From positions 91,624-155,623 of the forward strand of contig CAITGV010000001.1 of the NCBI GenBank assembly GCA_903892035.1: a stretch of 64,000 nt of DNA, given 5' to 3'. The notes beneath the pieces were generated by a model. That model saw only the letters and a list, made by a program, of their open reading frames with translations, searched no databases and had not been told where the DNA came from. The stretch is from an uncultured bacterium (GTDB taxonomy: Bacteria > Patescibacteriota > Minisyncoccia > Phycocordibacterales > UBA9973). Both the position numbers and the translations under genes were made by a program. Below are positions 256-61,224 of the stretch, piece after piece. Numbering within the stretch: position 1 is the first letter of the stretch; each line of letters starts with the position of its first letter.

Positions 256-320
256 CCGTACGATTAAACCCAACATTAGAAAAACCATACAAGAATAGAG
301 TAAGCACATTATTAGTTAGT

Positions 321-3481: not shown

Positions 3482-3482
3482 G

Positions 3483-4247: not shown

Positions 4248-4250
4248 ACG

Positions 4251-4954: not shown

Positions 4955-5012
4955 TGAAATCACTGAGGGGAGTTACCAACACGTTGCCAACAACGACCCC
5001 TCAGTGATTTCA
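4955..5012. promoter_or_regulatory. perfect 16-bp inverted repeat (TGAAATCACTGAGGGG / CCCCTCAGTGATTTCA) with a 26-bp spacer, just upstream of the recombinase start
   Basis: Read directly from the sequence. Lies 25 nt upstream of the probable start codon at 5037. Candidate operator or att core. Confidence 0.5.
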
Positions 5013-5036
5013 ACGATCTGCGTCATTAATATATAC

Positions 5037-6368: not shown

Positions 6369-6420
6369 TCAAAAAACGCCTACTAAACTATCGACTGGGG
6401 CGATTCAAAAAAGACTTACG

Positions 6421-13421: not shown

Positions 13422-13425
13422 TTTT

Positions 13426-30113: not shown

Positions 30114-30156
30114 AATATTCTGAATTTTTGTGTAAAAGAATGTTTTATATAATTTT

Positions 30157-30202
30157 TTCGCGCTTTACCCTCTCTACGGGGGCTCCGACACGCTCTAAAA
30201 TT
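30157..30202. repeat. 46-nt intergenic motif, copy 1 (TTCGCGCTTTACCCTCTCTACGGGGGCTCCGACACGCTCTAAAATT)
   Basis: Matches copy 2 at 61179..61224 at 44 of 46 positions. Confidence 0.7.
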
Positions 30203-34935: not shown

Positions 34936-34936
34936 T

Positions 34937-35734: not shown

Positions 35735-35770
35735 ATTTTTATTATACCACCTCAAGCACAAAAACAAATA

Positions 35771-36415
35771 TTAATTTTGTTTCATTATGTCGTAGCAGTA
35801 TTTACCTGAATCATAGTCAGTATTTGAATTCATATTATGAGTGCAACCACCGGTTACACCCTCAGCTGTACCATCAGCAACATTTGTGGCATATTGAGGA
35901 CTACCACACCTATATCCAGGTCGATTTGTAAGGACATTTGTATCATCACTAATAAAATCTGAGTCTGAATTTATCACAGAATTGCTTTTCTCTAATGAAA
36001 CAGCGAGGTGGTAACTATTACAATATACTAAATCGCTCGCTGTAGGTGTTGATGAGGTGTGAAAACTTGGAGCCTGCATACTTAAAGCTGTGTAATGATA
36101 ATTTGAATTTCCTCCTAGTGGATCTACTGGAACAGAGGGCAGATAACCTTCAGCAACTAAACGATTTAAGTTATTTGCCGACGGATTCAAGCTTCCATCG
36201 TAAAATGGATAATATCCGTATTTATCATAATAAAGAGTAAGTGCAGTTTGAATGCTATGTATTTCTTCAATACGTTTTGCGTCGCGAGCTTTTGCTCGAG
36301 CATCTGCCATTGATGCTAAAATCACTCCAGCCAAAATACCAATGATTGCAATTACAACCAAAAGCTCAAGAACAGTAAAACCTTTTTTAATAGAATTAAA
36401 TTTATTTAAACTCAT
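35771..36415 (-). CDS. type IV pilin-like protein
   Basis: KGFTVLELLVVIAIIGILAG signature. Confidence 0.7.
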   Translation of the reverse strand: MSLNKFNSIKKGFTVLELLVVIAIIGILAGVILASMADARAKARDAKRIEEIHSIQTALTLYYDKYGYYPFYDGSLNPSANNLNRLVAEGYLPSVPVDPLGGNSNYHYTALSMQAPSFHTSSTPTASDLVYCNSYHLAVSLEKSNSVINSDSDFISDDTNVLTNRPGYRCGSPQYATNVADGTAEGVTGGCTHNMNSNTDYDSGKYCYDIMKQN

Positions 36416-36425
36416 ACATACTCAC

Positions 36426-36869
36426 TTAAGAACAAACTCCAGTTGAAAGCGTACAAGTCACATTTGTGCTTGTTGTAGATGCGCTAAAAATAAGTGTCGG
36501 AGGTGAAGTAAGAGCACCGCCATTTGAAACTGGGAGGTACGCTGCACCTGTAGGCAATGCTGGCCACTTTGCATTGTGTCCAGACAAAGCTCCATATGGA
36601 GATGTTCCGCTTACACAAATTGCAACTCCAGTAGTCGGTGTCCCTGTTGCACTTGGCTGAGAACCAGCTGTGCCAGTACTTACATAACCACTATCATATG
36701 CGCAATTATTTAATTCTGAAACTACTCCGCTAAGTGTCGAAATTGTCGCCGCTCTGATAGACTTTGCTTTCGAAGAACTCATAGATGTTAAAACTATCCC
36801 AGTAATTATCATTATGATTGCAATAACAACCAATAATTCTAGAACTGTAAAACCTTTACTTTTTTTCAT
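36426..36869 (-). CDS. type IV pilin
   Basis: KGFTVLELLVVIAII signature, ~147 aa. Confidence 0.75.
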   Translation of the reverse strand: MKKSKGFTVLELLVVIAIIMIITGIVLTSMSSSKAKSIRAATISTLSGVVSELNNCAYDSGYVSTGTAGSQPSATGTPTTGVAICVSGTSPYGALSGHNAKWPALPTGAAYLPVSNGGALTSPPTLIFSASTTSTNVTCTLSTGVCS

Positions 36870-36924
36870 ATATACAAAGGAAAATATTATTAATTAATAT
36901 GTAAACTATTATATCATTCCCCAA

Positions 36925-36963
36925 ACAAAAAACCACTCCGACTGAAGCCAAAGTGGTTTTTTG
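36925..36963. terminator. rho-independent terminator after the pilin gene (minus-strand)
   Basis: AAAAAACCACT...AGTGGTTTTTTG hairpin with U-tract. Confidence 0.5.
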
Positions 36964-36985
36964 TTAATAAATAATCAAGAAATGA

Positions 36986-37438
36986 TTATGAGCAAGTTAG
37001 ATTTGTTGTAGTACCTTGTACACAATGAATATCCGCAAAACCAGTTCCCCCTACAAGATAGAAATCAGTACCACTTGCCAATGTACCCGCTGTAAATGCT
37101 GTTGGAGTTGGACCAGCTGCTGAAGAATATTGGTAAGGGTTGCCTGCAGGTAATGCTGGCCAAGTAACTGTGTGATTACCACCAGTACAAATTTGTGTTG
37201 TTCCAGGTGTTACAGGATTGTTAAGTGTAAGGGAATCATCATAACACAAAGTCATTTCTGTTCCCAAACCAGAAACTGTTGCCAAAGCTGAAGCTTTTTT
37301 AGCCTTGTTTGTAGCACCTGACAATGATGTCAAAACGATAGATGCAAGAATACCGATGATTGCGATAACGACGAGCAATTCGATCAATGTAAAACCACGA
37401 CTTTTAAGAACGGGTAAACCTTTTTGTTTATTAAACAT
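36986..37438 (-). CDS. type IV pilin (major pilin candidate)
   Basis: Leader MFNKQKGLPVLKSRG, then FTLIELLVVIAIIG. Confidence 0.8.
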   Translation of the reverse strand: MFNKQKGLPVLKSRGFTLIELLVVIAIIGILASIVLTSLSGATNKAKKASALATVSGLGTEMTLCYDDSLTLNNPVTPGTTQICTGGNHTVTWPALPAGNPYQYSSAAGPTPTAFTAGTLASGTDFYLVGGTGFADIHCVQGTTTNLTCS

Positions 37439-37506
37439 ATATATAAAAAAATTAATTAATAATAAAATAATAATACAACCTAGTTACTATTATACTCCTC
37501 TCAAAA

Positions 37507-37536
37507 CAAAAAACCACCTAGGTGGTGGTTTTTTGT
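37507..37536. terminator. rho-independent terminator after the pilin gene
   Basis: AAAAAACCACC-TAGG-TGGTGGTTTTTT. Confidence 0.5.
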
Positions 37537-37559
37537 TAATAACTTAATCAAATTCCAAA

Positions 37560-38003
37560 TTATGAACAAATAAGATTTGATGTTGCAGACCATCCACAAG
37601 TAATCGTAGGTAAAGTTGCACTTGTTAGATAAAACGAATGAACAGCGTTACTTGTTAATGCAGTATCTGCTGTAGTACCAGAATATGTACTTGCAGTTGA
37701 GTATTGATAATCTCCCGGAAGAGTTGGCCAGTTTACAACTGTGTGATTAGCTGCATTTGAACCCAAAGTTCCAGTAACTCTACAAATTGATGCTAAAACA
37801 ATTGGTTGAACTGGTGTAGCACTATCGTCTATACATAATATCAATTCTGTTCCTACACTTGAAACTGATGCCAAAGCTGAAGCTCTCTTAGCTTTGTTTG
37901 TTGCTCCTGACAATGATGTCAAAACGATTGATGCCAAGATACCGATGATTGCAATAACAACGAGCAATTCGATCAATGTAAAACCTTTTTGTTTATTTAA
38001 CAT
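37560..38003 (-). CDS. type IV pilin
   Basis: KGFTLIELLVVIAIIG signature. The longer ORF to 38288 was rejected. Confidence 0.75.
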   Translation of the reverse strand: MLNKQKGFTLIELLVVIAIIGILASIVLTSLSGATNKAKRASALASVSSVGTELILCIDDSATPVQPIVLASICRVTGTLGSNAANHTVVNWPTLPGDYQYSTASTYSGTTADTALTSNAVHSFYLTSATLPTITCGWSATSNLICS

Positions 38004-47699: not shown

Positions 47700-48179
47700 C
47701 TATTTATTATATGTAATTTCAGAATCTGGTGTCGGCACAGTAGTGTCGGGTTCGAGATGTGAAATATGTTTTCGGGTCACCACATAAGTTCCAAGAAATT
47801 TCAAAAAATCATTTGTTTTTGGTCTCTCCCCTTTTTCAAAAAAGTGTCGGAGCGGTGATGCTTCTGGCGTCAGCTCAAAGTGTCCACGAATCTCTCCATT
47901 TGAAAAAACACGCAAATGATATTGTTCACTAAAGCTCGTGAGCTTTCTCCAAGATAGAACTTGCGATGGATCTTCCCATGCCACAAAATGGTTTCCGAAA
48001 CCCCACTGTTCCGATAAATGTTTTTTTAGTCCTGCAAGTGTGTGGTGAGGATCAAGCCAACCTATATGATATTTCTGCCTTTTATTTGTATGTAAAAAAA
48101 GAAACCAATGTTCCAAATATGGAAATACAGGGTACAACCATCTCCAAATCTTTTGTTCAATCTTTCTGTATAGATTCAT
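47700..48179 (-). CDS. hypothetical protein
   Basis: No motif recognised. Convergent with the ATP-grasp gene. Confidence 0.3.
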   Translation of the reverse strand: MNLYRKIEQKIWRWLYPVFPYLEHWFLFLHTNKRQKYHIGWLDPHHTLAGLKKHLSEQWGFGNHFVAWEDPSQVLSWRKLTSFSEQYHLRVFSNGEIRGHFELTPEASPLRHFFEKGERPKTNDFLKFLGTYVVTRKHISHLEPDTTVPTPDSEITYNK

Positions 48180-48499
48180 ATATAAAACATATTAACACAA
48201 ATCAAAGATTCATCAATTCCTTTAGTGATTCAATAATATAAGTTGGATTTTTTGTTTCTTCGTTTGGAACCTCATCTTTAAACTTTCCTTTCTTTATCCA
48301 TAATTATTTTTCTTTACACCATTCCATAATTTCCAATGCTTCAGGAAATTCCATATTAGTTTCTGGGTCATGCAATGTCCTTCCCCAGTCAAAAATTATT
48401 GCTTTAATATTCATCTGCGGGTGGTACTAGACGAAGTTAGAACCTTCATAATGCTTAATTCTAGCACTAAATTCTCAATTGTGAACACTTGGTAGGCAT

Positions 48500-49891
48500 T
48501 TAAGCAGACTTAGTATATTTTCCCTCCATATCAGTATGTTTTACTATTTGCTCAATTTTTTCACCATCACCTCTGTCATCTAGTTTTATATAAACTCCGA
48601 CCCTTTCAATCACAGGAAGTAATTGAACTTCATTGTCATAATTTCCACCACCTTTTTCAAGCTGAAACCATACCATTGTCAGTATACTGTCATTTTCTTT
48701 ATAGAGGTCCAAATTGTACCAGATAACGAAATCTAACTCACCCCAATCGCTTGAATCAATTCTAATTGAGGATTTTGGCAAAAGCTCTCCTTTTTCTCTT
48801 ACTACTTTACTTGTTTCTAGTAAACCATCTTCGTCACCACAGTATGCTCCAGACAATAAGTTTACTCTTGTATATTTAGAATCTGTTGAGTTTACAAGAT
48901 GTACTTCAAAAGTGCTATCTTCTTCATTCATTATAAATGCCACAAACGGTTTATCTATCTCTGATTTTACTTTTAGAACAGATACCATTTCTGACTCTTT
49001 CATTTTTTCTTGGAAGTCTGCAAAAGTACTAAGGCAGTCTGCGATGTGTGCCATCAGAAGAAATGTTATCATATCTTCTTTGCTGTGCTCCTCTATATTT
49101 TTAATAACCGCTTTAAACGCAGTCATATCTGCGAGAAAACTTCGTTCAAATGCAGGAATGTCATTATGTTTCCGAAGAATACCAATATCAGATTGTGTAC
49201 GTTTACACAATTCAATTACTTTCTCTGCCATAAATGAACTTTTAAACACGCGACTTATTTCATATAGAATATATGCCAAATTCCATTCAATATAAGAAAT
49301 ATGTCCTTCATCTAAAGCTTGTACCCTGTACAATTCAATATCTATTTCTAAAAGGTCTTGCCTGAGAGGACTTTCAAACCAGCATTCCAATATTGTGGCG
49401 ATAACTTTGCGAGTGTAATGGATTATTTTTTCTTTTGGGGCATTGAACCTATCAAAAGTTTTTTCTCCATCTATTTTATAATCAGCAATAAGCTCTGATG
49501 TGTTTGAGATTATATCGGCGGATTTTAAGAGTAAAGAATCATTTGAGAAAGTTTTGATATGCTCTAGTGCTTCAGCTTTTCGCTCTACCCAAGACAAAGA
49601 CTTGTCTTGCTCTGTCACACTTAAAACCAAATCAGATACTCTCTGACCAAACATATCAGTAATCATTTCTTTAGTGACTTTGTGTTCAGTCACACTATCC
49701 TCAATAGTATCGTGCAGTATTCCAGCGACTACCACATCCTCTGTAGCCCCTGTATTAGCCAGTATTAGCCCCACAGAGAGCGGATGAGTGATGTATGGGA
49801 CATCTTTGCCTTTCCTTTTTTGCTTCTGGTCCAGCTCGTGGGTTTTGATTGCTAAGTTTATTGCTTTTTGAATGCGTGATGTATATATCAT
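48500..49891 (-). CDS. SpoT/Mesh1-type HD-domain (p)ppGpp hydrolase-like domain fused to a ~270-aa unknown C-terminal domain
   Basis: YITHPLSVGLILA...AGILHDTIED...FGQRVSDLV...LLLKSADIISN matches Rel/SpoT HD-domain blocks. No synthetase domain. Confidence 0.6.
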   Translation of the reverse strand: MIYTSRIQKAINLAIKTHELDQKQKRKGKDVPYITHPLSVGLILANTGATEDVVVAGILHDTIEDSVTEHKVTKEMITDMFGQRVSDLVLSVTEQDKSLSWVERKAEALEHIKTFSNDSLLLKSADIISNTSELIADYKIDGEKTFDRFNAPKEKIIHYTRKVIATILECWFESPLRQDLLEIDIELYRVQALDEGHISYIEWNLAYILYEISRVFKSSFMAEKVIELCKRTQSDIGILRKHNDIPAFERSFLADMTAFKAVIKNIEEHSKEDMITFLLMAHIADCLSTFADFQEKMKESEMVSVLKVKSEIDKPFVAFIMNEEDSTFEVHLVNSTDSKYTRVNLLSGAYCGDEDGLLETSKVVREKGELLPKSSIRIDSSDWGELDFVIWYNLDLYKENDSILTMVWFQLEKGGGNYDNEVQLLPVIERVGVYIKLDDRGDGEKIEQIVKHTDMEGKYTKSA

Positions 49892-50142
49892 AATATTTAT
49901 AATTATTTTTATAATACTCTTAACGCAATAGTTGCGGACTAGGCAAACAAAAAAGCGACTAAGAGATTTACACCAGTACGACTTACTGATAGAAATCTCC
50001 CAACCGCTTTAACGCTAGTCAGTCATTTATAACTTGTGGCTCATCGCAGATTTCCCAACTTGCCTACCCATTTAAGGGAGATATAAACGGTCTGATTTGC
50101 TTGCTCAGACTACAATGTTTCTAATAAAGAACTACACTTACA

Positions 50143-51639
50143 CTATATCACAGAAAGCAGATGCTTCCAAATCGCATACATCGCATATGTATCTAGCTTG
50201 CAATACTTTAAAAGGTCCTGAATCTGAGTTTGCTTATCAGTTTCACTGTATTGGTCTGTGACAATCTTATTCCAAGTATCTGAAGCCACAGCCCCATTTT
50301 GTATGCCAAGCTCTTTATAACTCAAATCCGAGAGCGTAGGCAACACAAATTTGATAGAAGTCTTACCTTTAAATCCCTTGTGAACATACATCTGTTTTTT
50401 AAACACATCTTCCAAATCAACAACTTTTGAGTTTAAGTTTTCTAAGAAATCTTTATATTCAGGGTTTCTTTCAACAAGCTTATTATTGATACCCATTTCA
50501 AAACTTTTATTCCAGACAATTATAGAGCCAGTTTTCGGTAGCTGTTTCTGTAGAGCTTCTATAAATTCTATGTCGGGCTTTGTTGATTCGGAGAATATAA
50601 ATTCGCTGTGGGCTGGCTCTATACTTTCTTCGCTTGCTATATGCAAGGAAAATTGAAATGGTATCTGGTTGAATGGACCATAGCCAGAAAATCTAGGGAT
50701 AGCTGATGGAAATGTCTCGTAATCTAAAAATGATATTGGATACTTAATCGTCTCAAGAAATTCACTGATTGCATTTTTATCAATCAATTTCTTGTCTATC
50801 TGTGCAACTTGAACCTGATTCTTTTGAATATCACTTAGCTCAAAGTCCTCTGGTACCTCTAGTATAGAAAACTTCTCTAGGTTCATATCTACAAGGTCCT
50901 CAAGTTTTTTCTTTGATAAACCGATGCGGGCTATGTCGTGAATGCTGTAATCAGAAACATCAGGATTGGAATACTTGAAAGTCGTACAGTGTGAGCTTCT
51001 ACCTCTGGTGATACATTTACACTCTCCGTGCGGTTCTTCAGTCTGAGATAGTACACCAAAGGCACTATCCATATCAGAGCTGACAGCATCAATAATACCG
51101 TTTACTTTGTCTGTAAAATCTTCTTTAGTAAGTAGCCCATTTAAATCAATGTCTCCCGCACGAATATATTCTTTATTTAAACGCACGAGATATAGTTTGT
51201 TTATAGGTATATTATTTTCTTTCAAAACAACATACTGAAAAGCTAAATCGTTAGAATAGATTTCATCTTTTGCTTTCTTGTTTTCTCCACTATTGGAAGC
51301 CTTTACTTCATAAACATCATACGCTCCTACTTCACTGTTCCAGACAAAAATATCAGAAATCATTTTAAACTTTTCTGTTTCAAATACTGGCTGATATATA
51401 ACTGGTGTTTTCTTTTCAATCAAACTTTTGGTCAATTCTGTATCATCTCTATCTTCCACCAAAACACCATTTGGAAACAACCCTCGTGCGAGCGTATCCA
51501 CATCATTACCAGTCTCAATAATCATCATTTCAAACTCTGAAAGTGGCTGTGATTTATACACCTCAGGCTTGTGAATCTTCAGCCAAGCATTCTTACCGCA
51601 ATCTTGGTATATAAGATAGTTTGTTTTTGATAGTTTCAT
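50143..51639 (-). CDS. DUF2779-like predicted dual nuclease (N-terminal PD-(D/E)xK plus C-terminal DnaQ-like exonuclease motifs)
   Basis: N-terminus LSKTNYLIYQDCGKNAWL. D..YEVK motif. C-terminal FLDYETF and YCKLDTYAMY. 3-nt gap to the RM gene. Confidence 0.45.
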   Translation of the reverse strand: MKLSKTNYLIYQDCGKNAWLKIHKPEVYKSQPLSEFEMMIIETGNDVDTLARGLFPNGVLVEDRDDTELTKSLIEKKTPVIYQPVFETEKFKMISDIFVWNSEVGAYDVYEVKASNSGENKKAKDEIYSNDLAFQYVVLKENNIPINKLYLVRLNKEYIRAGDIDLNGLLTKEDFTDKVNGIIDAVSSDMDSAFGVLSQTEEPHGECKCITRGRSSHCTTFKYSNPDVSDYSIHDIARIGLSKKKLEDLVDMNLEKFSILEVPEDFELSDIQKNQVQVAQIDKKLIDKNAISEFLETIKYPISFLDYETFPSAIPRFSGYGPFNQIPFQFSLHIASEESIEPAHSEFIFSESTKPDIEFIEALQKQLPKTGSIIVWNKSFEMGINNKLVERNPEYKDFLENLNSKVVDLEDVFKKQMYVHKGFKGKTSIKFVLPTLSDLSYKELGIQNGAVASDTWNKIVTDQYSETDKQTQIQDLLKYCKLDTYAMYAIWKHLLSVI

Positions 51640-51641
51640 AA

Positions 51642-53921
51642 CTATTTCAACAGCTCATATTTAAACAATTTTGGTGTGATATATCTTGCGTAGTAGTTCT
51701 TAAGTTTCTTTTTAAGATTCTCTAATTCACCATTGAGTGTTGAGTAGTGATAAACTATTTTATTATTTTCATCTTTCTCCGATGTATTTAATTCCATTTC
51801 AATTTGGTAAGGACCGTACGCTAATTTTTTACTATAGTTTTCTGTCTTCTTAGCTTCAACTAAAACAGCTTCCCATATCTTTACTAATTCTTTTTCGTCA
51901 CCATTTAATTTGAATTTTTCAAGCTGTTTACTTGCTAGTGTGTCATTATCAAAACACAATTCATTTTTATAGAATCGTTTGTCGCTACCAGTAAAAGAAA
52001 TACATTTATTGTATCGAGATAAACATGCAAAGATAAAGCATGATTTCAAGAAGTCTTTATCTTTTGTGTATTTATCACCACCATCACCAGTGGTAAAATA
52101 AACATCTTTTTCATACCACTTTTCTTGAGGGTAAAGTTTTGCTGAAAAAAGTGGTAATTTTTCAAAGTAATTATCGTCTCGCAAATAAAAACCATTTTTT
52201 CTTAAATTTATAGTTGTCCTTGTTAAATTTTTTGCTTGTCCATTAAACATCAAACCGACTAAGTGTAAGTAAGCGATTATATTTTTATTGTAAATATTTT
52301 CTGTAGCAGTGCTTTTCTGTTTTGGTGCTTCATAACCATCCGCTCCACACCAAACACCATTAGTAATATCATCCTTTAGTACTCTTCTGTCAAAATAAAC
52401 TTCATTCGGTGATTTATAACATTTACGAATGATTATGTCTTGAATTTGAAAAATCGTATCATCAGAAACATCAGCTGTATTTTTTGTGTTAATATCAAAA
52501 GCATTCAAAGTAAAATTTTCCTGATTTTTGTCAAAATTTTGCCACAAAATGCAAGAGATTGTTGATGGAGAAGCATGAAAAAATTTGCGATTAAAAGCAA
52601 AACCAAGTTTAAATGTTTTGTTTACAAGTCCAATATTTTTAAAGTATTTTACTGGACTGAATAAAATATAACTATCGGTAGGTTGCCTCAAGTAATAATG
52701 AAACCCAGACCATATAAATAAGTTGGCTAATTCCTTTGATGGAACATTTCCTTTCATTTTTGATTTAAAATTTTTCTTAAATTCAGTTGAAATAAAAGAA
52801 TTTTTACCAACATTACGAGATACTCCAGTTTCCATCGTATCCCCAGAAGCATCACTATATGGTGGGTTCTCAAATAAAATTACCGTACATTTTGAATTAT
52901 CAGTATATTGTTTAATAATTTCATTATTTACAAAATCTTCACTAAGAGCGTCTGCATTTACCACAAAGCCAGCAGAAAATTCTACGTTGTCATCAGTTGG
53001 TGGAATAATATGACGAACACGTCCATTGAAACGTTCTAACAAAACCTTGTATTCATAATATTCATAAGTACTAACAATGGTGTGCTCAAGTTCTTCACTA
53101 GAAAGCTCTGCTTCCAAATTTCCAGTCCCCGCACATCGGTCTAAAATAATATAATCATTACCCTTAGGAACAAGCTTGATTGCTTCACGAACAAGCTCTA
53201 CAGATTTTTTTGCATAAGCAGGTGGAGTAAAGAATGCACCGAGTTCTTTTTTTATCAAATTATCATTCAACTTATCCATCAAATACTTAAATTTGATGTT
53301 TGTTTTTTCCTTAAATGGCAGAATATAGTCCTTGAACTTTATTGGTTTGCGAATTTCGCCACCGTCTTTATCATCAAGATAATCACTTTTCTTTGCAGTT
53401 GGATTTTCTCGGTAAAATTTTTCCGCCCATCCAACAATACAATCCTCATCAATTTTTATTTTAGTGAAATTATTTTCTTTTAGTATTTTTAAAATCTTGT
53501 CTGCACCCATACCCGTAGAGTAGTCAATTTCTATTGGCTGTTTTTTTATTACAAAACCATCATTATTTTTACTTGCTCCACCATAATAAATTTGGTGAAT
53601 TTCTTCAAAATAATCTCCGCTATCAAAAATATTTGCCTTGCTCTGATTCAACGAAATAAGCAAAATATTTTTGGGCACTGGATTACCAGTAATTCTTAGT
53701 CGTGAAAGATACTTAATTGCCTGAAAAAGTACTTGCTGTGTGTTGTTGATGTTTAATTTAAATTCAAAAATATTCCCTTTATTAACACCATCGGTGTTAG
53801 CAATTAAAATATCATTTTCATCAATGTTTATTCCAAAATTCTTGAAAAAGTGAAGTTGACCTTCCCGTTCAGTGGTAAAAGTTTTATTTAGTGTTTTTTT
53901 ATTTTTAGTTTCTGTTTTCAT
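51642..53921 (-). CDS. type IIG/IIL restriction-modification enzyme (PD-ExK nuclease fused to gamma-class N6-adenine methyltransferase and TRD)
   Basis: N-terminal D..EFK motif. GAFFTPP (motif X), DRCAGTGN (motif I), NPPY (motif IV). ORF open to 53972. Confidence 0.65.
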   Translation of the reverse strand: MKTETKNKKTLNKTFTTEREGQLHFFKNFGINIDENDILIANTDGVNKGNIFEFKLNINNTQQVLFQAIKYLSRLRITGNPVPKNILLISLNQSKANIFDSGDYFEEIHQIYYGGASKNNDGFVIKKQPIEIDYSTGMGADKILKILKENNFTKIKIDEDCIVGWAEKFYRENPTAKKSDYLDDKDGGEIRKPIKFKDYILPFKEKTNIKFKYLMDKLNDNLIKKELGAFFTPPAYAKKSVELVREAIKLVPKGNDYIILDRCAGTGNLEAELSSEELEHTIVSTYEYYEYKVLLERFNGRVRHIIPPTDDNVEFSAGFVVNADALSEDFVNNEIIKQYTDNSKCTVILFENPPYSDASGDTMETGVSRNVGKNSFISTEFKKNFKSKMKGNVPSKELANLFIWSGFHYYLRQPTDSYILFSPVKYFKNIGLVNKTFKLGFAFNRKFFHASPSTISCILWQNFDKNQENFTLNAFDINTKNTADVSDDTIFQIQDIIIRKCYKSPNEVYFDRRVLKDDITNGVWCGADGYEAPKQKSTATENIYNKNIIAYLHLVGLMFNGQAKNLTRTTINLRKNGFYLRDDNYFEKLPLFSAKLYPQEKWYEKDVYFTTGDGGDKYTKDKDFLKSCFIFACLSRYNKCISFTGSDKRFYKNELCFDNDTLASKQLEKFKLNGDEKELVKIWEAVLVEAKKTENYSKKLAYGPYQIEMELNTSEKDENNKIVYHYSTLNGELENLKKKLKNYYARYITPKLFKYELLK

Positions 53922-54046
53922 AGGCATCCGTACTGAGATGCCTAAAAACAAAATAGGCACCCCGAGTAGCAAGGTGCCCCAAGATAACAGCTTTCGCCGT
54001 TGGTCCTGATTCCCTGACTAGGGTGCCCATTATGGGCAGGACCAAC
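53922..54046. other. cluster of nested GC-rich hairpins in the divergent intergenic region
   Basis: AGGCATC/GATGCCT, GGCACC/GGTGCC, and GTTGGTCCTG/CAGGACCAAC enclosing CCCT..AGGG and CCCA..TGGG. Confidence 0.45.
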
Positions 54047-54170
54047 AACAAAAAGCATAAAACTTCTTGAAAAACTATTATCTTGGGGCAACATAAATAT
54101 AGCAAAAAATACTTAATTTTACCAGTCAAATATGATAAAATGTCTTTGTTTTCAATAAACCACCATTACA

Positions 54171-55283
54171 ATGAATAAACTGCATTCAAAACTATATACT
54201 GCAAAAAAACTCCTACTGAGCCATTTGGAAGTGAACGGTAAAAGAAACACTTTCTCTAAGCTAGATTTTTCAAAAAGCACTCTAACCGCTTTAGAGCAAG
54301 ATGGGCTAATAAAATTTGATAAGCCTTTATTGAGCAAGAAATATATCAATAATTATCAAAGTGCCAGAAAAACATTTGAAAGCATACAAGAAAAAAAGCG
54401 TCTAGCTTCTCTTTCTTTTGGTGGACCTCGAAGCTCGTATGGTCTTGAGCAGACAAAGAAAGAATTTGAAAATTATCTAGCTGATAAATACTGTAGTCTC
54501 GGAAAAGGGCTATATGAAAAACTTCAAGAAAGCCCAGAGATTGAAATTGACCACTTAAGTTTTCAGAGTATCGCAACGAAAGATTTTGCAAACGATTCTT
54601 TAAGTTTTAACCTAGAATTTTCACCTGAAAAAATACAAGAGTTTTTGAATGAGAAAATGGATTTGTTTATTACAGACGAGTTAGAATTGTCTGATGACCA
54701 AGCCCATAGATTTTTAAGCTATGAGAAACAAAAAGAGCAGTTTTCTATTGGTATTGTGAAGCTAACAAATACTGGATATTCTGCAAATAATTTAAAGATA
54801 GATTATATGCAGATTTTTAAGAAAGAGGATTTATTGCAAACAAACTTTGTTGAAACAGCTCTAGCTATGGAAAGAGAGGGATTGATAGAGGTAAAAAATA
54901 TCATAGAAACAACGCCAGCAAACCCTGTAGTTATAACTAGTCAAGATGTATTTAAATATCCTACGATTATACAGCTTAAGGTTCTTGGTAAATTCTCGCC
55001 TTACTATGAACAAGTTTATAAGAAATACTCACCTAAAACACAGGAATCAACCCAAGAAGCCTTAACGCCAAACAATAAGAAATTGAAACTACTTGAAAAA
55101 TTGAAAGAGGAAAAAGATTTAATGCCTAAATGGAAAACAGTTATGGATATTCATCCCCCTAAATTCTCTAGTTGGATGAGAGAGTGCGGTATTGATGACT
55201 ACACCCAGCTAAGAAATATTCTTGATAGTCTTCAAGAAGAAGAATTACTTATTTCTATTAAGTCTGTTAATCCAGCTATGTGA
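54171..55283 (+). CDS. hypothetical protein (cargo of the integrated element)
   Basis: 370-aa ORF with no recognised motif. Confidence 0.35.
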   Translation: MNKLHSKLYTAKKLLLSHLEVNGKRNTFSKLDFSKSTLTALEQDGLIKFDKPLLSKKYINNYQSARKTFESIQEKKRLASLSFGGPRSSYGLEQTKKEFENYLADKYCSLGKGLYEKLQESPEIEIDHLSFQSIATKDFANDSLSFNLEFSPEKIQEFLNEKMDLFITDELELSDDQAHRFLSYEKQKEQFSIGIVKLTNTGYSANNLKIDYMQIFKKEDLLQTNFVETALAMEREGLIEVKNIIETTPANPVVITSQDVFKYPTIIQLKVLGKFSPYYEQVYKKYSPKTQESTQEALTPNNKKLKLLEKLKEEKDLMPKWKTVMDIHPPKFSSWMRECGIDDYTQLRNILDSLQEEELLISIKSVNPAM

Positions 55284-55801
55284 TGATGAATTATCTACAA
55301 ATACAATTTCCTGAAGACTTTGAGAAAAGGTATAAAAAATACAAGGACCAGATTTTGCATTCCTCTACTAAAAATACTTTCTCAAAGATACCCTCAGATG
55401 AACCAACAGTTGCCACCCAAGAAACAGAAAATCAAAAAGGTGTTAAATCAAACCCTGAATCAGGCAAGAAAATGGCTTCAATTGAGTATAACCCAATCAC
55501 TGGTGATGGAATTGTAAATACAACAAGTTTTAAATTCAAAGACCACCAGCCTGAATATAGGTTATTTAAACTTCTGTGCGAAAAGGTTAATAATAAAATT
55601 CAACGCTATGACGTTCTTGTAGCAATCCATTTTTATGAAGATGGTGCAGATGTTGAACCAGCTAGAAAGTCTCTTGAGACTGAAGAAATAAATAAAGTTG
55701 TTAAAAAAATCAGAGGGAAAACTGGGCTTACTACAAAACAGCTAGTAAATAACAATGGAAATGTAACATTACTCGGGAATATAGTACCAAATCAAACCTA
55801 A
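55280..55801 (+). CDS. hypothetical protein
   Basis: Overlaps the upstream stop by 4 nt. No motif. Confidence 0.3.
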   Translation: MMMNYLQIQFPEDFEKRYKKYKDQILHSSTKNTFSKIPSDEPTVATQETENQKGVKSNPESGKKMASIEYNPITGDGIVNTTSFKFKDHQPEYRLFKLLCEKVNNKIQRYDVLVAIHFYEDGADVEPARKSLETEEINKVVKKIRGKTGLTTKQLVNNNGNVTLLGNIVPNQT

Positions 55802-56167
55802 AACCATACTGAATCTAGTCTAAATCGCATCTAACTCGAATAAGTGAATAAATATAGGATGATACTAAGCCTATATTTTTTTTGGCTGGGGAAATCTTGA
55901 ACCCCCTGTAAGCCCTTTGCTTACTCGGCAGGTGCCTCACGGCGTTCAAGAACCTACCGAGTAAATAGTGGGCTTGCCTATGTTACCAGAACAAGCCATA
56001 ACAGAATACAAGAAGCTCTACGAAGCCCGTTACGGCGTCGTTTTAAGCGATGCTGAGGCATCGTTGCGGGCGAATAACCTTGTAAATTTCTATAAGGCTA
56101 CTTTGGGGTCGGAACATCCAAATACAACGAAAGTGGTCGATGAACCTCGTTGTAATTATTAACAAAT

Positions 56168-56515
56168 ATGGCAAAAATAAATTGTCATAAAATTTACAGC
56201 AGTATGAGCTACACAGTAAAAGAACTAGCAAACGAGTTAGGAATATCAGAAAAAACAATTTTCCGTTGGATTGAAAATGGTTTAAGAATTGTAGATGGAA
56301 GCAAGAAACCCATCCTGATAATGGGTGTGGAAGTAAAAGATTTTACAAGAAGAAAAGATTCAAAAAAGAAAGTAGGTAAAATTAAAAGGAATGAGTTTTT
56401 GTGCCTAACGTGTAAGAAAGGGAGACGTGCAAAAAGAGGTTCAATTAAGAAACTGAAGAGCAAGAAACTAGGAGAATGTTATGTCTGTAACGGGAAAATG
56501 AGCAGAACAATCTAG
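56168..56515 (+). CDS. excisionase/MerR-like HTH protein with C-terminal zinc ribbon
   Basis: YTVKELANELGISEKTIFRWIENG HTH and CLTC..CYVC. Immediately upstream of the tyrosine integrase. Confidence 0.45.
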   Translation: MAKINCHKIYSSMSYTVKELANELGISEKTIFRWIENGLRIVDGSKKPILIMGVEVKDFTRRKDSKKKVGKIKRNEFLCLTCKKGRRAKRGSIKKLKSKKLGECYVCNGKMSRTI

Positions 56516-56594
56516 CTCGACCAAAAGGACTATGTAGTATTGTCTCTTCTAGTTTAAATGTCCATTATTAACTATTAACGCATCTATTAAAATT

Positions 56595-57701
56595 ATGACA
56601 AAAACAACGCTCGAAAATGAGCAAATAAAGAGGGATTTTTTTGACCAACTAAAGGGAGCAAAAGGGTTTGCAAAAAGCTCAGTAGTAGCTTTTTCAGATG
56701 CAATATCCCAGTGGCAAAAATTCACTGAAAATGAAAGTTTTTCAAAGTTTACTAAAGAAGAAGCGACAGCTTTTGTGGAGTGGTTAAGCACCAAGCCATC
56801 TAAAACAAAAACTGGTAAAATCGCTCTAGTTACTCAAGACAATTATCTTCGCAGAGTGAAGAAGTTTTTTGAGTGGCTGTCTGAGCAATCGGGATATAAA
56901 AGCAAAATATCAAAAAATGAAGTAGAGTGGCTGAGGCTTTCCAAGACCGATGCTCGTATTGCAAGAATGGGGACTACCCGCACAGAGCCTGTATTTGAGG
57001 AGGTAAAAAAAGTTATAGAAAGTATAAAAGGTAAAAGTGAAGTAGATATGAGGGATAGAGCCATTATTTCTCTAGCATTGATTACAGGGGCTCGTATTTC
57101 CGCCATTACCTCTTTGAAAATGCGTAGCTTCGACAAGAAAAAGAATGTCGTGTATCAAAGTCCAAAAGATGGTATTAAAACAAAAAGCTCAAAGCTGATA
57201 GCTACCTTGATTTTCCCTATTGAATGGCGTGAACCAGAAAGATATTTTGTCGAATGGTATGAGTATCTAGAGTCAAAAGGTTTCCGCCCAGATGACCCTA
57301 TTTTCCCAGCAACATTTAATGATATAGGTAATAAAAATACTAGCAAAGCAGTGGTCAGCAAGCGTTTTTGGAGTAATGCTAACTCTGCACGAAATATCTT
57401 TAAAACAAGATGTTTGGATGCTGGCATTCCTTACTTCAATCCTCACTCCTTTCGTCACCTAATTGTGGGTATGTGGATGGAGGAGATACTTCCCGAGAAA
57501 TATAAAAAGGCTATCAGCCTGAATCTTGGTCACGAAAGTGTTTCTACTACCTTTGATTCATATGGTCATAGTAATATGACCCAAAATGAGGTCTTTGGAA
57601 TTATTAAAAATCTCAAGAATTTAAAAGCAGAGAGTAAAAGCACTTCGATAACACAAGAAGAAAGGGAGGCTATCGAGAAGCTACTTAAAAGAAGTGCATA
57701 A
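56595..57701 (+). CDS. tyrosine site-specific integrase
   Basis: N-terminal SAM-like domain. Catalytic R (ITGARIS), HSFRHL (HxxR) and the SYGH Tyr motif. Confidence 0.8.
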   Translation: MTKTTLENEQIKRDFFDQLKGAKGFAKSSVVAFSDAISQWQKFTENESFSKFTKEEATAFVEWLSTKPSKTKTGKIALVTQDNYLRRVKKFFEWLSEQSGYKSKISKNEVEWLRLSKTDARIARMGTTRTEPVFEEVKKVIESIKGKSEVDMRDRAIISLALITGARISAITSLKMRSFDKKKNVVYQSPKDGIKTKSSKLIATLIFPIEWREPERYFVEWYEYLESKGFRPDDPIFPATFNDIGNKNTSKAVVSKRFWSNANSARNIFKTRCLDAGIPYFNPHSFRHLIVGMWMEEILPEKYKKAISLNLGHESVSTTFDSYGHSNMTQNEVFGIIKNLKNLKAESKSTSITQEEREAIEKLLKRSA

Positions 57702-57742
57702 CACCACTTGCTATGTAAAGAATAGTAAAGTATACTAGATAT

Positions 57743-58690
57743 ATGAATAATAATAAATTGGGTAAATTAAGCAAGGTAGACTTGCGGGAAATTTGGAAAA
57801 ATGAAGAGTATGACTTTTCAGCTTGGCTGGCTGAAGAAGAAAATCTTGCTCTTTTGTCCGACGAACTTGGTGTTTCAATAAAATTGATTGAGAGAGAAGC
57901 GGGTGTTGGAAAATACAGCTTGGATATTTTAGCGGAAGAGGAAGGCACGGGGCATAAAATCGTGATAGAGAACCAACTTGAAAATACTGACCACGACCAT
58001 TTGGGAAAAATCATCACGTACTCTGCTGGGCACGATGCGAAAATCATCGTTTGGATTTTCAAAGACATCTGTGAAGAGCACCGCAGTGCGATTGACTGGC
58101 TCAACGACAACACAGGCGATGACCTTCACTTTTTCGCTGTGAAGTTGGAAGTATGGAAAATCAACGAATCCGAATCAGCTCCGAAGTTTCAAATAATTTG
58201 TAAGCCGAACGAGTGGAAAAAAATTGTAAAACATAGTTCGGGAAGTAAGGATTTGGGAAGTACTGAATTGAAAAAACTTGATTTTTGGACAAAACTCAAA
58301 TCATACGCTTTAGATAAAAAAGTAACTCTATTCACACGAACACCCAACCCGTATCACTGGTATGATATATCTATTGGAACTTCTGGAGCTCATATTTCAC
58401 TCACTATCGGTATTAGAGAAAGTAAAATTGGTTGTGAACTTTATATTGACGATAACAAGCCCTTATTTGAGCATCTCAAAACAAAAAAGATGGAGCTTGA
58501 AGGACAGCTCAACGGGAAGCTTGAGTGGATAGTAGCAGAAAAGGCGTGTCGCATCGTGTTACGAAAAGAAAATGCCAACTTGGATGATGAAGAAAATACC
58601 AGCACCTTATTTGATTGGATGATTGAAAAAGCGGTCGTTTTTCATAAAGTATTTAGTCCGTTAGTAAAGCAATACAAAAATGAGCAATAA
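57743..58690 (+). CDS. hypothetical protein with PD-(D/E)xK-like core (possible DUF4268-like)
   Basis: YSLDILAEEEGTGHKIVIENQLENTDHDHLGKIITY block. Confidence 0.35.
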   Translation: MNNNKLGKLSKVDLREIWKNEEYDFSAWLAEEENLALLSDELGVSIKLIEREAGVGKYSLDILAEEEGTGHKIVIENQLENTDHDHLGKIITYSAGHDAKIIVWIFKDICEEHRSAIDWLNDNTGDDLHFFAVKLEVWKINESESAPKFQIICKPNEWKKIVKHSSGSKDLGSTELKKLDFWTKLKSYALDKKVTLFTRTPNPYHWYDISIGTSGAHISLTIGIRESKIGCELYIDDNKPLFEHLKTKKMELEGQLNGKLEWIVAEKACRIVLRKENANLDDEENTSTLFDWMIEKAVVFHKVFSPLVKQYKNEQ

Positions 58691-58871
58691 AGATTTTTAC
58701 ACAGCCAAAGAACTGGCAGATAAACTGCGAGTAAATATAATGACCATCTATCGCTATATAGGTGCGAAAGGTGCAAAGAAATTAAATGCCTATAAATTTG
58801 GCAAGGAATTTAGAATTGATAAGAAAGAGTTTGATAGTTTCTTGAACAAGGCAAAAACTAATGGAAAATAA
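58680..58871 (+). CDS. excisionase-family HTH DNA-binding protein
   Basis: YTAKELADKLRVNIMTIYRYI HTH. Overlaps the serine recombinase start. Confidence 0.5.
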   Translation: MSNKDFYTAKELADKLRVNIMTIYRYIGAKGAKKLNAYKFGKEFRIDKKEFDSFLNKAKTNGK

Positions 58872-60468
58872 AACTGTCAAAATGATATATGGTGGCTACC
58901 ACAGAAAATCTACCGAATCTGAGGATAGGCAGGTTCTTTCTATTGATTCTCAAATTGATGAGGGTAAGAGAATCGCAGATAGCTTAGGGATAAAAGTGAA
59001 ACCTGAGCATATTCTTTCAGAATCAAAATCAGCCAAAGTAACTGGTAAGCGATTAAAGTTCCAGCAAATGCTCAGTATGATTGAGCGAGGAGAAATAAAT
59101 GGAATCATTGTATGGCACGCAGACAGGCTTTCAAGAAATGCTATGGACTCAGCTTTACTTATTGACCTGATAGATAAAGGAAAACTTATTGAAATAGTTA
59201 CGCCAGCACAAACATTCAGGAATACTCCGTTAGATAAATTTATGTTTATGTTCCAGTGTAGTCAGGCAAAAATGGAGAACGACAAAAAAGGCGTTGATGT
59301 AACAAGAGGACTTCATAAAAAAGCTAGTCTCGGAATGTATCCTGCACCAGCACCTGTTGGTTACAAAAATGATAAGTATGCAGAGAAAGGAAACAAAGTG
59401 CCACTAGTAGATGCGGAAAGATTCCCACTGGTGCGAAAAATGATAGACCTTATGCTTACAGGAAATTATACTGTGGCGGAGATATGGAGAATCGCAAGAA
59501 ACGAATGGGGCTTTACTATGCCGAGTGGAAAGAAAATCAGTAGACCTACTGTTTATAGAATTTTCTCAAACCCTTTTTATTATGGGAGATACGAATATCC
59601 TCTCAGAAGCGGTAAGTGGTATGACGCTATCCATACTCCGATGATGGATGTGGAGGAGTACGACAAGATTCAATTTATCCTTGGCAAGAAAGGTAAACCT
59701 AGACCGAAGTCTCACATATTTGATTTTACAGGAATGATGCACTGCGGAGAGTGCGGAGCAAGTATTACAGCCGAGACAAAAATTAAAAGGCAGAAAAATG
59801 GGAACATTCATACCTATGTTTACTATCACTGCACTAAAAGAATAAATCCAAACTGCACGCAAGGCTCTATTGAGGAGAAAGATTTAAAGAAGCAAATTGT
59901 AGCTGAAATTGAGAGTATTGAAATACCGCCAGAATTTCATAGTTTTGCTATGAAATGGTTTAAGAAAGAGAACGAAAAAGAAATTGATGGTCGTAATGCT
60001 GTTATAAAAGCCAATGAGAAAGCCTACAAGGCTTGTTTAGCGAAGATTGACGGCTTAACCGATATGAGAGCGGGTGGCGAAATATCAGCCGTAGAATTTG
60101 CTGAAAGAAAAATAAAATTCCTTGCAGAAAAGAAACAACTTGATAATTTATACGGTGATACAAGTAAGAGAGTAGATAGGTGGCTAGATACTGCCGATAA
60201 TATGTTTACTTTTATTGAAAACGCAAAAGATAAATTTGAAAATGGAACGATTCAGACAAGACGCTCAATACTTTCAACACTAGGTTCAGACCTCATACTA
60301 AAGGATAAAATACTCAGTATTGATATAGATAAATCACTCTTTCCAATAAAAAGAGTCTCAAAAGAGGCTAATGCAATTAGTAAACGGTTAGAACCTCTCA
60401 AAACTATTGATAAACAAAGAGAATTTGACCTTTTGTGTGATAAAAATCCCGTAATGCGGAGGCGGTGA
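58861..60468 (+). CDS. large serine recombinase (paralog of the 5037..6368 gene)
   Basis: YHRKST catalytic Ser, ADRLSRN, and zinc ribbon CGECGA...YYHCTKRINPNC. By eye about 45 % identical to the first recombinase. Confidence 0.85.
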   Translation: MENKTVKMIYGGYHRKSTESEDRQVLSIDSQIDEGKRIADSLGIKVKPEHILSESKSAKVTGKRLKFQQMLSMIERGEINGIIVWHADRLSRNAMDSALLIDLIDKGKLIEIVTPAQTFRNTPLDKFMFMFQCSQAKMENDKKGVDVTRGLHKKASLGMYPAPAPVGYKNDKYAEKGNKVPLVDAERFPLVRKMIDLMLTGNYTVAEIWRIARNEWGFTMPSGKKISRPTVYRIFSNPFYYGRYEYPLRSGKWYDAIHTPMMDVEEYDKIQFILGKKGKPRPKSHIFDFTGMMHCGECGASITAETKIKRQKNGNIHTYVYYHCTKRINPNCTQGSIEEKDLKKQIVAEIESIEIPPEFHSFAMKWFKKENEKEIDGRNAVIKANEKAYKACLAKIDGLTDMRAGGEISAVEFAERKIKFLAEKKQLDNLYGDTSKRVDRWLDTADNMFTFIENAKDKFENGTIQTRRSILSTLGSDLILKDKILSIDIDKSLFPIKRVSKEANAISKRLEPLKTIDKQREFDLLCDKNPVMRRR

Positions 60469-60542
60469 GATTCGAACTCACGGTCCTTTAAAGGGACGAC
60501 GGTTTAGTAAACCGTTGATTTAAACCACTCATCCACGCCTCC
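60457..60542 (-). tRNA. class-II (long variable arm, Ser-like) tRNA with anticodon loop UUACUAA, i.e. apparent anticodon ACU. CCA is not encoded.
   Basis: Hand-folded. Acceptor GGAGGCG/CGCCUCC, T-arm GUGAG-UUCGAAU-CUCAC, anticodon stem ACGGU/ACCGU, variable stem GUCC/GGAC. The last 12 nt are overlapped by the recombinase stop. Confidence 0.55.
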
Positions 60543-60610
60543 AGTGGTAGCTTAACTTATAACATTTTATGGAGAAAAAAACAAAAATATGCTACTCTTT
60601 CTTGGTATTT

Positions 60611-60695
60611 GGAGACGTGTCGGAGTGGTCTAACGTACCTCCTTGCTAAGGAGGCAGGCTTCACGGCCTCGCGAGTTCGAATCTCGCCGTCTCCG
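60611..60695 (+). tRNA. tRNA-Ser (anticodon GCU)
   Basis: Acceptor GGAGACG/CGUCUCC, anticodon stem CCUCC/GGAGG with loop UUGCUAA, long variable arm, T-arm GCGAG-UUCGAAU-CUCGC, G73. Confidence 0.85.
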
Positions 60696-60697
60696 CT

Positions 60698-61174
60698 ATG
60701 AAGAAAATTCCTATAGGTATCGTTCACGGAAGATTTCAGCCACTACATAGTGGGCATTTGAAATACATACTTGCAGGACTCGCAAGATGTGATTTTTTAT
60801 ATATTGGGGTTTGTACACCAAAACTTTGCACTAAAGAAGAGGCAGAAAAAACTGGCTTCCCCTGCCTACCAGAACAAAACCCACTTTCTTTTATTGAAAG
60901 AAAAAAAATGATAGTGGAAGCATTGAAAGAAAAAAATATTCCAAATAAAAAATATAAAATTATTAAATTTCCAAGTGATTATAAAAATATTGAAAAATAC
61001 ATTCCTAAAAATACTACATTTTTTATGACGGCATGGAATGACGAAGGGGAAAATAAGGTAAAAGCTCTGCGAAGGCTTGGTTTAAAAGTTTCAGTTTTAA
61101 GTTCCATAAAAAAGGAGAAAGGTGAAAAAAGTGGGACTGAAATAAGAAAAATATTCGCTCGTGCGGTAACTTAA
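60698..61174 (+). CDS. archaeal-type nicotinamide-nucleotide adenylyltransferase-like nucleotidyltransferase
   Basis: GRFQPLHSGH motif. Confidence 0.55.
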   Translation: MKKIPIGIVHGRFQPLHSGHLKYILAGLARCDFLYIGVCTPKLCTKEEAEKTGFPCLPEQNPLSFIERKKMIVEALKEKNIPNKKYKIIKFPSDYKNIEKYIPKNTTFFMTAWNDEGENKVKALRRLGLKVSVLSSIKKEKGEKSGTEIRKIFARAVT

Positions 61175-61178
61175 TTTA

Positions 61179-61224
61179 TTCGCGCTTAACCCTCTCTACG
61201 GGGGCTCCGACACGCTCAAAAATT
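61179..61224. repeat. 46-nt intergenic motif, copy 2
   Basis: TTCGCGCTTAACCCTCTCTACGGGGGCTCCGACACGCTCAAAAATT. Matches copy 1 at 44 of 46 positions. Confidence 0.7.

Follow-up and report, generated by a model that had tools for sequence, protein, structure and literature searches.

We report a gene for a class-II serine tRNA with the anticodon ACU, tRNA-Ser(ACU), in a stretch of 64,000 nucleotides from an uncultured bacterium (assembly GCA_903892035.1, contig CAITGV010000001.1, positions 91,624 to 155,623), hereafter called the window. The gene lies on the minus strand beside a gene for the usual tRNA-Ser(GCU), and a mobile element has integrated at its 3' end. It is probably, with a likelihood that we put at about 75%, a functional chromosomal tRNA dedicated to the serine codon AGU, which would read this codon with an unmodified adenosine at anticodon position 34 (A34) while tRNA-Ser(GCU) is retained next to it. 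This reading draws on sequence comparison and on the analogy with tRNAs described from other bacteria.

ARAGORN called three tRNA genes in the window, namely tRNA-Gln(CUG), tRNA-Ser(ACU) and tRNA-Ser(GCU), and placed tRNA-Ser(act) at 60456..60542 on the minus strand. The Rfam covariance model RF00005 matched 60457..60542(-) at full length, covering model positions 1-71, with 57.3 bits and an E value of 1e-9 (gathering score 29), and the neighbouring tRNA-Ser(GCU) scored below this, with 52.6 bits. Both programs agree with the initial annotation, which had folded a class-II tRNA with the anticodon ACU by hand at 60457-60542, and a covariance-model score above that of the neighbour is not what a pseudogene would give. 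The anticodon loop was read directly in the sequence as UUACUAA (U32 U33 A34 C35 U36 A37 A38); it is a 7-nt loop with U33 and A37, as had been described, and the loop of the neighbouring tRNA-Ser(GCU) reads UUGCUAA.

The 5' half of the predicted RNA is GGAGGCG-UG-GAUG-AGUGGUUUAA-AUC-A-ACGGU-UUACUAA-ACCGU, and the 3' half consists of the variable arm CGUCCCUUUAAAGGACC followed by GUGAG-UUCGAAU-CUCAC-CGCCUCC-G. The molecule has an acceptor stem of 7 bp, a D stem of 3 bp, G18G19, a long variable arm, the T loop GTTCGAATC and the discriminator G73. In the D stem G10-C25, A11-U24 and U12-A23 are paired and G13:A22 is unpaired; the stem of the variable arm has 4-5 bp (alignment columns 46-61) and covaries. 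The terminal CCA is not encoded in the window gene, where a C and then the ATTAC of the island stand directly 3'. A minimum free energy fold of the single sequence gave no cloverleaf, only the acceptor and T arms being formed (z = -3.4), so the cloverleaf is taken from the alignment to the covariance model and from covariation within the family. The features of a bacterial class-II tRNA-Ser (a variable-arm stem, G73 and a 3-bp D stem) were all found, and by every sequence criterion that could be applied the gene belongs to the tRNA family and, within it, to the bacterial class-II tRNA-Ser.

A metagenome collection was scanned with a pattern of the tRNA body, GGATGAGTGGTTTAAATCAACGGTTTNNNAAACCGTCG, in which the anticodon was left free as NNN. 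At least 120 loci matched, and the family counts given here refer to the matches listed; loci and contigs used in the comparisons are cited by the letter L and a number. All 120 had the anticodon ACT, and ARAGORN called tRNA-Ser(act) in 117 of them. Among these matches, 68 full-length tRNA sequences and about 108 upstream regions are distinct. In the alignment of the 68 sequences, G73 is present in every one, and standard pairs occupy 98.9% of the cells of the cloverleaf. Changes on both sides of a pair occur in 10 pairs (193 cells), the acceptor and variable-arm stems contributing four each and the T stem two. For covariation the score was 0.324 versus 0.086 for shuffled alignments (0 of 500 reached 0.324), and registers slid along the alignment gave at most 0.069. 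The D and anticodon arms of these matches are invariant by construction of the search pattern and are therefore uninformative there.

For these two arms, homologues of the pilus ATPase PilB provided a route to further loci that is independent of the tRNA pattern. The three loci L261, L262 and L268 reached in this way all carry the ACU gene, as does L128. L261 belongs to the 705-kb record CP064973.1, whose PilB is named as Candidatus Nomurabacteria, and its tRNA-Ser(ACU) contains compensatory changes in both stems: A11-U24 of the D stem has become G-C, and the anticodon stem reads GCAGU/ACUGC in place of ACGGU/ACCGU. At L266 and L267 the whole region is missing from the stretch examined. The ACU gene is widespread but not universal. 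The PilB ATPase of the window itself, which belongs to a contig of at least 359 kb and has a GC content of about 35%, has its best named homologues in Candidatus Paceibacterota, Pacebacteria, Nomurabacteria and Minisyncoccia, which identifies the host as one of the Patescibacteria. As judged from these sequences, tRNA-Ser(ACU) is a paralogue family conserved in the Patescibacteria, or Candidate Phyla Radiation (CPR), among relatives of Paceibacterota and Ca. Nomurabacteria. In the cultured phage genomes of INPHARED, tRNA-Ser matches had at most 80% identity and no close relative was found.

A one-off mutation or a sequencing error is excluded by the occurrence of ACU in at least 120 loci and by the compensatory changes. 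The initial annotation had also considered a pseudo-tRNA, that is, a redundant duplicate of tRNA-Ser(GCU) which acquired a G34A change and is decaying. A normal GCU gene does lie only 68 nt away, and the island has taken the place of the native 3' trailer. Against decay stand the covariance-model score, which exceeds that of the neighbour, the constancy of ACU in 120 of the 120 matches listed, and compensatory changes in all stems; in addition, the gene is only 69% identical to its neighbour and so is no recent duplicate. We therefore consider a pseudo-tRNA very improbable. The other proposal made there, a serine tRNA of the G34-to-A type reading AGU, is supported in substance, though what was found is an old and conserved paralogue family on more than 120 independent contigs rather than a single variant.

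The identity between the ACU and GCU genes, 69% in the window, has a median of about 67% within loci, and on this sequence divergence the two are old paralogues. The anticodon stem ACGGU/ACCGU of the ACU gene is the commonest one among the tRNA-Ser(GCU) of a first viral scan (98 of the 120 viral-contig matches listed; the scan gave at least 120 matches, from which no ratio of ACT to GCT can be derived), and the window tRNA-Ser(ACU) is 83% identical to the GCU tRNA of L034. Both genes occur in one locus in the window, in L128, L261, L262 and L268, and in 72 of the 117 listed metagenome loci, where a tRNA-Ser(GCU) is nearby. In 57 of these 72 the genes are arranged head-to-head with a median gap of 90 nt; the gap in the window is 68 nt. 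The surroundings of the pair are conserved as well, with RecG, a histidine kinase and a response regulator on one side and PilM, the pilus operon and a 159-aa open reading frame (ORF) on the other. This conserved synteny indicates a vertically inherited chromosomal feature and not the cargo of an element. The flanking cytidylyltransferase, with a nearest homologue of 52% identity, was not used for synteny.

The spacer between the divergent genes presumably holds both promoters. On the minus strand an extended -10-like sequence, TGTTATAAG, is found at 60556..60564, 14-22 nt upstream of the ACU tRNA. A generic sigma-70 scan of 60300..60800 gave no match, and TATAAT alone was not enriched upstream of the family (51 versus 36 in shuffled sequences, which is not different). 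The sequence evidence for a promoter of the ACU gene's own is only suggestive.

Codon usage and alignment of the window genes define the code in which the tRNA would operate. The aligned AGA codons of the host genes (471) have CGN as their counterpart in 29.5% of cases in orthologues and Lys codons in 22.7%, TCN in 0.4% and AGT in 0.8%. In RecG, AGA stands opposite Arg in 4 of 4 cases, and the catalytic Arg of both serine recombinases of the window is encoded by AGA. AGT codons align with AGT, TCN and AGC. The genetic code is standard, with AGA for Arg and AGU for Ser. A reassignment of AGA and AGG to serine was considered and rejected, AGA aligning with TCN or AGY in only about 1%. Among the 18,097 codons of the window, AGU makes up 70% of AGY (317 versus 133 AGC), and AGA is the commonest Arg codon (191 codons).

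SerRS does not use the anticodon for recognition of its tRNA. Given this and the strict conservation of ACU, some other reader of the anticodon is implied, most obviously the ribosome. The long variable arm and G73 are the identity elements by which SerRS would be expected to charge tRNA-Ser(ACU) with serine. In the proposed mechanism A34 would stay unmodified, and AGU would be read by tRNA-Ser(ACU) through a Watson-Crick pair between A34 and U3 of the codon. AGC would be read by tRNA-Ser(GCU), which could reach AGU only through G:U wobble, and the clade would thus have one dedicated tRNA for each AGY codon. The analogy for decoding with an unmodified A34 is an orthogonal ACU tRNA in E. coli, which reads AGU without detectable reading of AGC (U:C at least 95:5) and contains no inosine (PMC11066159). 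A natural A34 tRNA of a split codon box, tRNA-Asp(AUC) of Streptomyces, improves the decoding of GAU (PMC9262613). Bacterial A34 tRNAs other than tRNA-Arg(ACG) are almost absent and an unmodified A34 is exceedingly rare (PMC11066159), in agreement with the remark in the initial annotation that A34 is nearly confined to tRNA-Arg(ACG).

Several points weigh against a functional, AGU-dedicated tRNA. The expression and serylation of the tRNA, its specificity for AGU and the state of its A34 are deduced from sequence and by analogy. The AGU share of 0.70 lies within the range of U-ending shares in the other NNY boxes (0.53-0.76), and with so unremarkable a share codon demand alone fails to explain why A34 occurs only in the Ser AGY box. 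The covariation of the D and anticodon stems comes from the single locus L261, and L264 has a GCU gene without an ACU gene at the syntenic spot. Of 109 distinct loci, 58 have the motif TGYTAnnWK at a distance of 14-40 nt upstream of the gene, versus 6.7 +/- 2.5 after shuffling, an enrichment that is inflated, as the motif was defined by eye, post hoc and on the same data. Finally, the related CPR loci L125 and L131 contain a TadA-like ORF with 37% identity to E. coli TadA.

The last point bears on the alternative that a TadA-type enzyme deaminates A34 to inosine (I34), giving an anticodon ICU that would read AGU, AGC and possibly AGA. ACU also has A34 and C35 in common with the TadA substrate ACG. 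The substrate loop, however, is of the type C32 U33 A34 C35 G36 A37, from which tRNA-Ser(ACU) differs at positions 32 and 36 by having U32 and U36. The requirement for G36 is established for TadA, and CPR enzymes may differ. An I:A pair would cause misreading of AGA, which still encodes Arg and is the commonest Arg codon (191), and the GCU partner for AGC, which is kept in most loci, would be redundant if ICU read both codons. E. coli TadA leaves an ACU tRNA undeaminated (PMC11066159). By its loop sequence tRNA-Ser(ACU) is not a canonical TadA substrate, and we regard deamination as unlikely. As a separate observation, the same two loci contain tRNA-Arg(GCG) rather than tRNA-Arg(ACG) in the stretch examined (L125 8594..8666 and L131 9600..9672), with the TadA-like deaminase at 13206..13587 and 14221..14586, respectively, 4.5 kb from tRNA-Arg(GCG).

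A role beyond the decoding of AGU was considered as a second alternative. The tRNA could be a back-up that escapes an anticodon nuclease directed at tRNA-Ser(GCU), or a serine donor for a tRNA-dependent transferase. Such a role is suggested by the independent tRNA-Ser(ACU) genes in tRNA arrays of phages and by the use of the 3' end of the ACU gene as a hot spot for mobile elements; tRNA-Ser is also known as the target of a toxin, VapC10 (PMC10945364). A serine donor, though, would need no invariant ACU, given that SerRS ignores the anticodon, yet ACU is constant in more than 120 loci, and the elements for use on the ribosome (G18G19, the T loop, a 7-nt loop, U33 and A37) are canonical. The phage examples occur among U34 tRNAs for A/U-ending codons at 35-41% GC, which fits codon matching. 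Taken together, a role of this kind seems quite unlikely, somewhat more so than deamination.

An ACT-specific viral scan detected these independent tRNA-Ser(ACU) genes, with different bodies, in 11 IMG/VR contigs (L015, L016, L020, L043, L064, L107 and L256-L260). Other tRNA genes lie beside the viral ACU gene in 9 of the 11 stretches, mostly with U34. This solution has thus arisen more than once. Another A34 serine tRNA, tRNA-Ser(AGA), was seen in the phage arrays L003, L012, L022, L076 and L096, so that A34 serine tRNAs of both kinds exist outside cellular genomes.

A wider proposal starts from a clade-wide A34 in a split box and adds that a modification of A34 (inosine or a new one), or separate promoters of the ACU and GCU genes, would tune the decoding of AGU and AGC independently. 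We consider this proposal doubtful. If true, it would represent a natural codon-specific control of translation built on two dedicated serine tRNAs.

The island at the 3' end of the ACU gene and the other features of this region are listed in Table 1. The initial annotation had suggested that the tRNA could be an attL hybrid, whose 3' part, including the anticodon, was supplied by the integrated element. An integrated element is indeed present, its recombinase genes abut the 3' end of the tRNA and the recombinase ORF overlaps the tRNA by 12 nt; as the source of the anticodon it fails, because the junction core covers only tRNA positions 71-74. Homology to the element copies in L121-L123, L129 and L130 stops at 60459, so that copies elsewhere match the window only up to GCGG. 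In these five loci the element ends with ...CGTAATGCGG and continues into non-tRNA DNA, and the ORF is 15 codons longer. The element is found at 5 of the 117 informative listed ACU loci, and the remaining 112 carry ACU without it. Members of the same recombinase family adjoin Ser(UGA), Ser(GGA) and Gln(UUG) tRNAs with host-specific bodies. Moreover, a comparison of the window with L128 shows covariation of the acceptor pairs 6:67 and 7:66 across the supposed junction, which confirms that the acceptor stem is host sequence. There is next to no chance that the tRNA is an attL hybrid; on the basis of these comparisons the island is really present but no explanation for the anticodon.

Table 1. 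Features at and around the tRNA-Ser(ACU) gene, with coordinates in the window
Feature	Position	Strand	Description
Integrated island	48417..60459		About 12.0 kb; at the tRNA-Ser(ACU) 3' end; GCGG at both ends
Left junction core GCGG	48417..48420		Start of the conserved 79-nt left end 48417..48495 (GCGGGTGGTACTAGACGAAGTTAGAACC...)
HD-domain protein	48500..49891	-	Island cargo; Pfam
DUF2779 protein	50143..51639	-	Island cargo; Pfam
Cargo ORF	51642..53972	-	No family match
Cargo ORF	54171..55283	+	No family match
Cargo ORF	55280..55801	+	No family match
Small ORF	55968..56162		Precedes the tyrosine integrase
Helix-turn-helix (HTH)/excisionase-like ORF	56168..56515		Precedes the tyrosine integrase
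Tyrosine integrase	56595..57701	+	Pfam Phage_integrase
DUF4268 gene	57743..58690	+	Between the recombinase genes; Pfam; PADLOC PDC-S11, E 1e-116
HTH_17 ORF	58680..58871		Follows the tyrosine integrase
Large serine recombinase (LSR)	58861..60468	+	535 aa; Pfam Resolvase, Recombinase and Zn_ribbon_recom
Right junction core GCGG	60456..60459		Antisense of tRNA positions 71-74; element homology ends at 60459
tRNA-Ser(ACU), class II	60457..60542	-	Anticodon 60506..60508; G73 at 60457; ARAGORN, Rfam, homologues, covariation
Spacer between the divergent tRNA genes	60543..60610		68 nt; presumably both promoters
tRNA-Ser(GCU)	60611..60696	+	Head-to-head with the ACU gene; anticodon stem CCUCC/GGAGG; ARAGORN, Rfam

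Comparison with further copies of the element revealed the two ends of the island, which share GCGG only. The 79-nt left end is 98.7% identical to L129 4854..4932 and 82% identical to L133 798..876, both of which lie upstream of the same recombinase module; L129 is a shorter copy of 3.7 kb with the same ends at a non-tRNA site. Relatives with empty sites support the boundaries. The distance between the orthologue of the window ORF 47700..48179 and the ACU gene's 3' end ranges from 87 nt (L149) to about 240 nt (L229), versus 12.3 kb in the window, and in the empty sites L148, L150 and L153 an identical tRNA is followed by CCA where the window has C-ATTAC. No partial repeat of the tRNA (attR) was found in the window by pattern search (at most 3 mismatches) or by blastn-short. 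The characters of a tRNA-gene island are present, namely a recombinase at the end, a repeated core, empty sites (L149 and L229) and copies elsewhere (L121-L135), with a core of only 4 bp. Positions 71-74 of the tRNA (GCGG) have served as the attachment site, and the island leaves tRNA positions 1-74 intact. The attP of the excised circle is predicted to be ...CTCGTAATGCGG joined to GGGGTACTAGACGAAGTT....

The last four codons of the LSR and its TGA stop (60466..60468) are antisense to the acceptor and T stems of the tRNA. Homologues with 74-94% identity abut the 3' ends of tRNA genes, and in several of them the ORF ends about 12 nt inside a minus-strand tRNA. The overlapped tRNAs are Ser(UGA) in L124/L132 and L125/L126/L131, Ser(GGA) in L134 and Ser(ACU) in L128; the LSR of L135 stops 6 nt short of tRNA-Gln(UUG) and does not overlap it. 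In L128 the host flank has 45-53% GC and the element 33% GC, a contrast which shows that the element moves between quite different hosts, both owning the ACU gene. Five loci, L223, L227, L243, L171 and L261, have an LSR of a second lineage, about 32% identical, in the vicinity of the ACU gene, and at L261 4309..5997 (CP064973.1) its ORF overlaps the 3' end of tRNA-Ser(ACU). From these sequences the 3' end of the ACU gene seems to be a hot spot at which unrelated elements integrate repeatedly.

The recombinase module, consisting of a 60-aa protein, an HTH protein, the tyrosine integrase, the HTH_17 protein and the LSR, is common to L121-L126. The DUF4268 gene is missing from the module in these loci, which makes it variable cargo, and its family PDC-S11 is a candidate anti-phage defence family. 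It was the only gene of the island with a PADLOC match; the cargo at 48500..55801 gave none. This cargo includes a 776-aa ORF and may be an undescribed defence or accessory module.

Other observations were made in the window and in the compared loci. The Ser(ACU)/Ser(GCU) pair has a tRNA-Ile(UAU) at a distance of 4-5 kb in 14 of the 120 listed loci, for example at L136 1346..1420, L137 676..750 and L140 1066..1140. Decoders of AUA of the UAU type are rare in bacteria and are known from Mycoplasma mobile (PMC3575796). The gene suggests lysidine-independent decoding of AUA in this CPR group; a literature search on TilS and tRNA-Ile in Patescibacteria found nothing specific to CPR. The window region 1..6400 has a GC content of 0.45-0.48 versus about 0.35 and contains a DNA methylase, a weak terminase-like ORF, a LOOT RNA at 4758..4880 (minus strand, 76 bits) and a second LSR at 4938..6368, which is about 40% identical to the first. 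The region probably represents a further integrated element or what is left of a prophage. A 53-nt direct repeat (TAATTT.TTCGCGCTT.ACCCTCTCTACGGGGGCTCCGACACGCTC.AAAATT) occurs in two intergenic copies, 94% identical and 31 kb apart, at 30150..30202 and 61172..61224, and one copy lies just downstream of the cytidylyltransferase-like gene adjoining tRNA-Ser(GCU). At 33600..38000 there are at least five short genes with a type IV pilin N-terminal motif (repeat family D1/D2), an array that adjoins the pilus assembly operon (PilM, PilB, PilC-like).

The sequence of the ACU gene is already present in public genome records such as CP064973.1, and no description of a bacterial or CPR tRNA-Ser(ACU) was found in the full texts searched, subscription journals being outside the scope of the search. 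If true, the proposed function would make this tRNA, which is conserved, syntenic and structurally constrained across a large uncultured bacterial group, the clearest example in nature of an NNU codon of a split box with a reader of its own. It would provide a natural system for asking why A34 is avoided and how misreading of AGA is prevented, as well as a natural template for AGU-specific orthogonal tRNAs. In practical terms, Ser(ACT) calls should be kept in the annotation of CPR genomes and not be discarded as pseudogenes. The analysis also defines a family of small recombinase islands at the 3' ends of CPR tRNA genes, that of the ACU gene included; few mobile elements have been described from CPR genomes.

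Among known systems, the island is like other integrative islands that target tRNA genes in that it abuts the 3' end of the tRNA, leaves the tRNA intact, has empty sites in relatives and is bounded by a terminal direct repeat. It is unlike the typical ones in its core of 4 bp (GCGG) and in carrying both an LSR, with its ORF across the junction, and a tyrosine integrase. The tRNA itself shares with the canonical bacterial tRNA-Ser(GCU) the class-II architecture, G73 and the loop UU-NCU-AA, and differs from it as a separate paralogue with A at position 34 in every ACU member.

Bacterial tRNA-Arg(ACG) and eukaryotic tRNA-Ser(AGA) are I34 tRNAs produced by TadA and ADAT. Another I34 tRNA is the tRNA-Leu(AAG) of Lactobacillales (PMC13249217). 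As in these, A34 is genomically encoded in tRNA-Ser(ACU); the I34 tRNAs, however, serve four-codon boxes, in which the reading of U, C and A by I34 is harmless, whereas the box of ACU is split between AGY for Ser and AGR for Arg. The tRNA-Thr(AGU) of Mycoplasma is similar in its unmodified A34, which is proposed for ACU, and in belonging to a bacterium with a reduced genome, but it serves a four-codon box by super-wobble in a minimal tRNA set, whereas the ACU tRNA is added to a G34 isoacceptor (PMC11066159).

A parallel in kind is the tRNA-Asp(AUC) of Streptomyces, a natural A34 tRNA of a two-codon NNY box that occurs beside a G34 isoacceptor (PMC9262613). As is proposed here for tRNA-Ser(ACU), it has been proposed to read the U-ending codon through a Watson-Crick pair and not through G:U wobble (PMC9262613). 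That tRNA is sporadic, being found in 32 of 4649 genomes, and is located on the chromosome arms of GC-rich genomes with a low Cove score of 29 (PMC9262613). In contrast, tRNA-Ser(ACU) is a class-II, high-scoring and syntenic serine tRNA that is present in many AT-rich CPR genomes.

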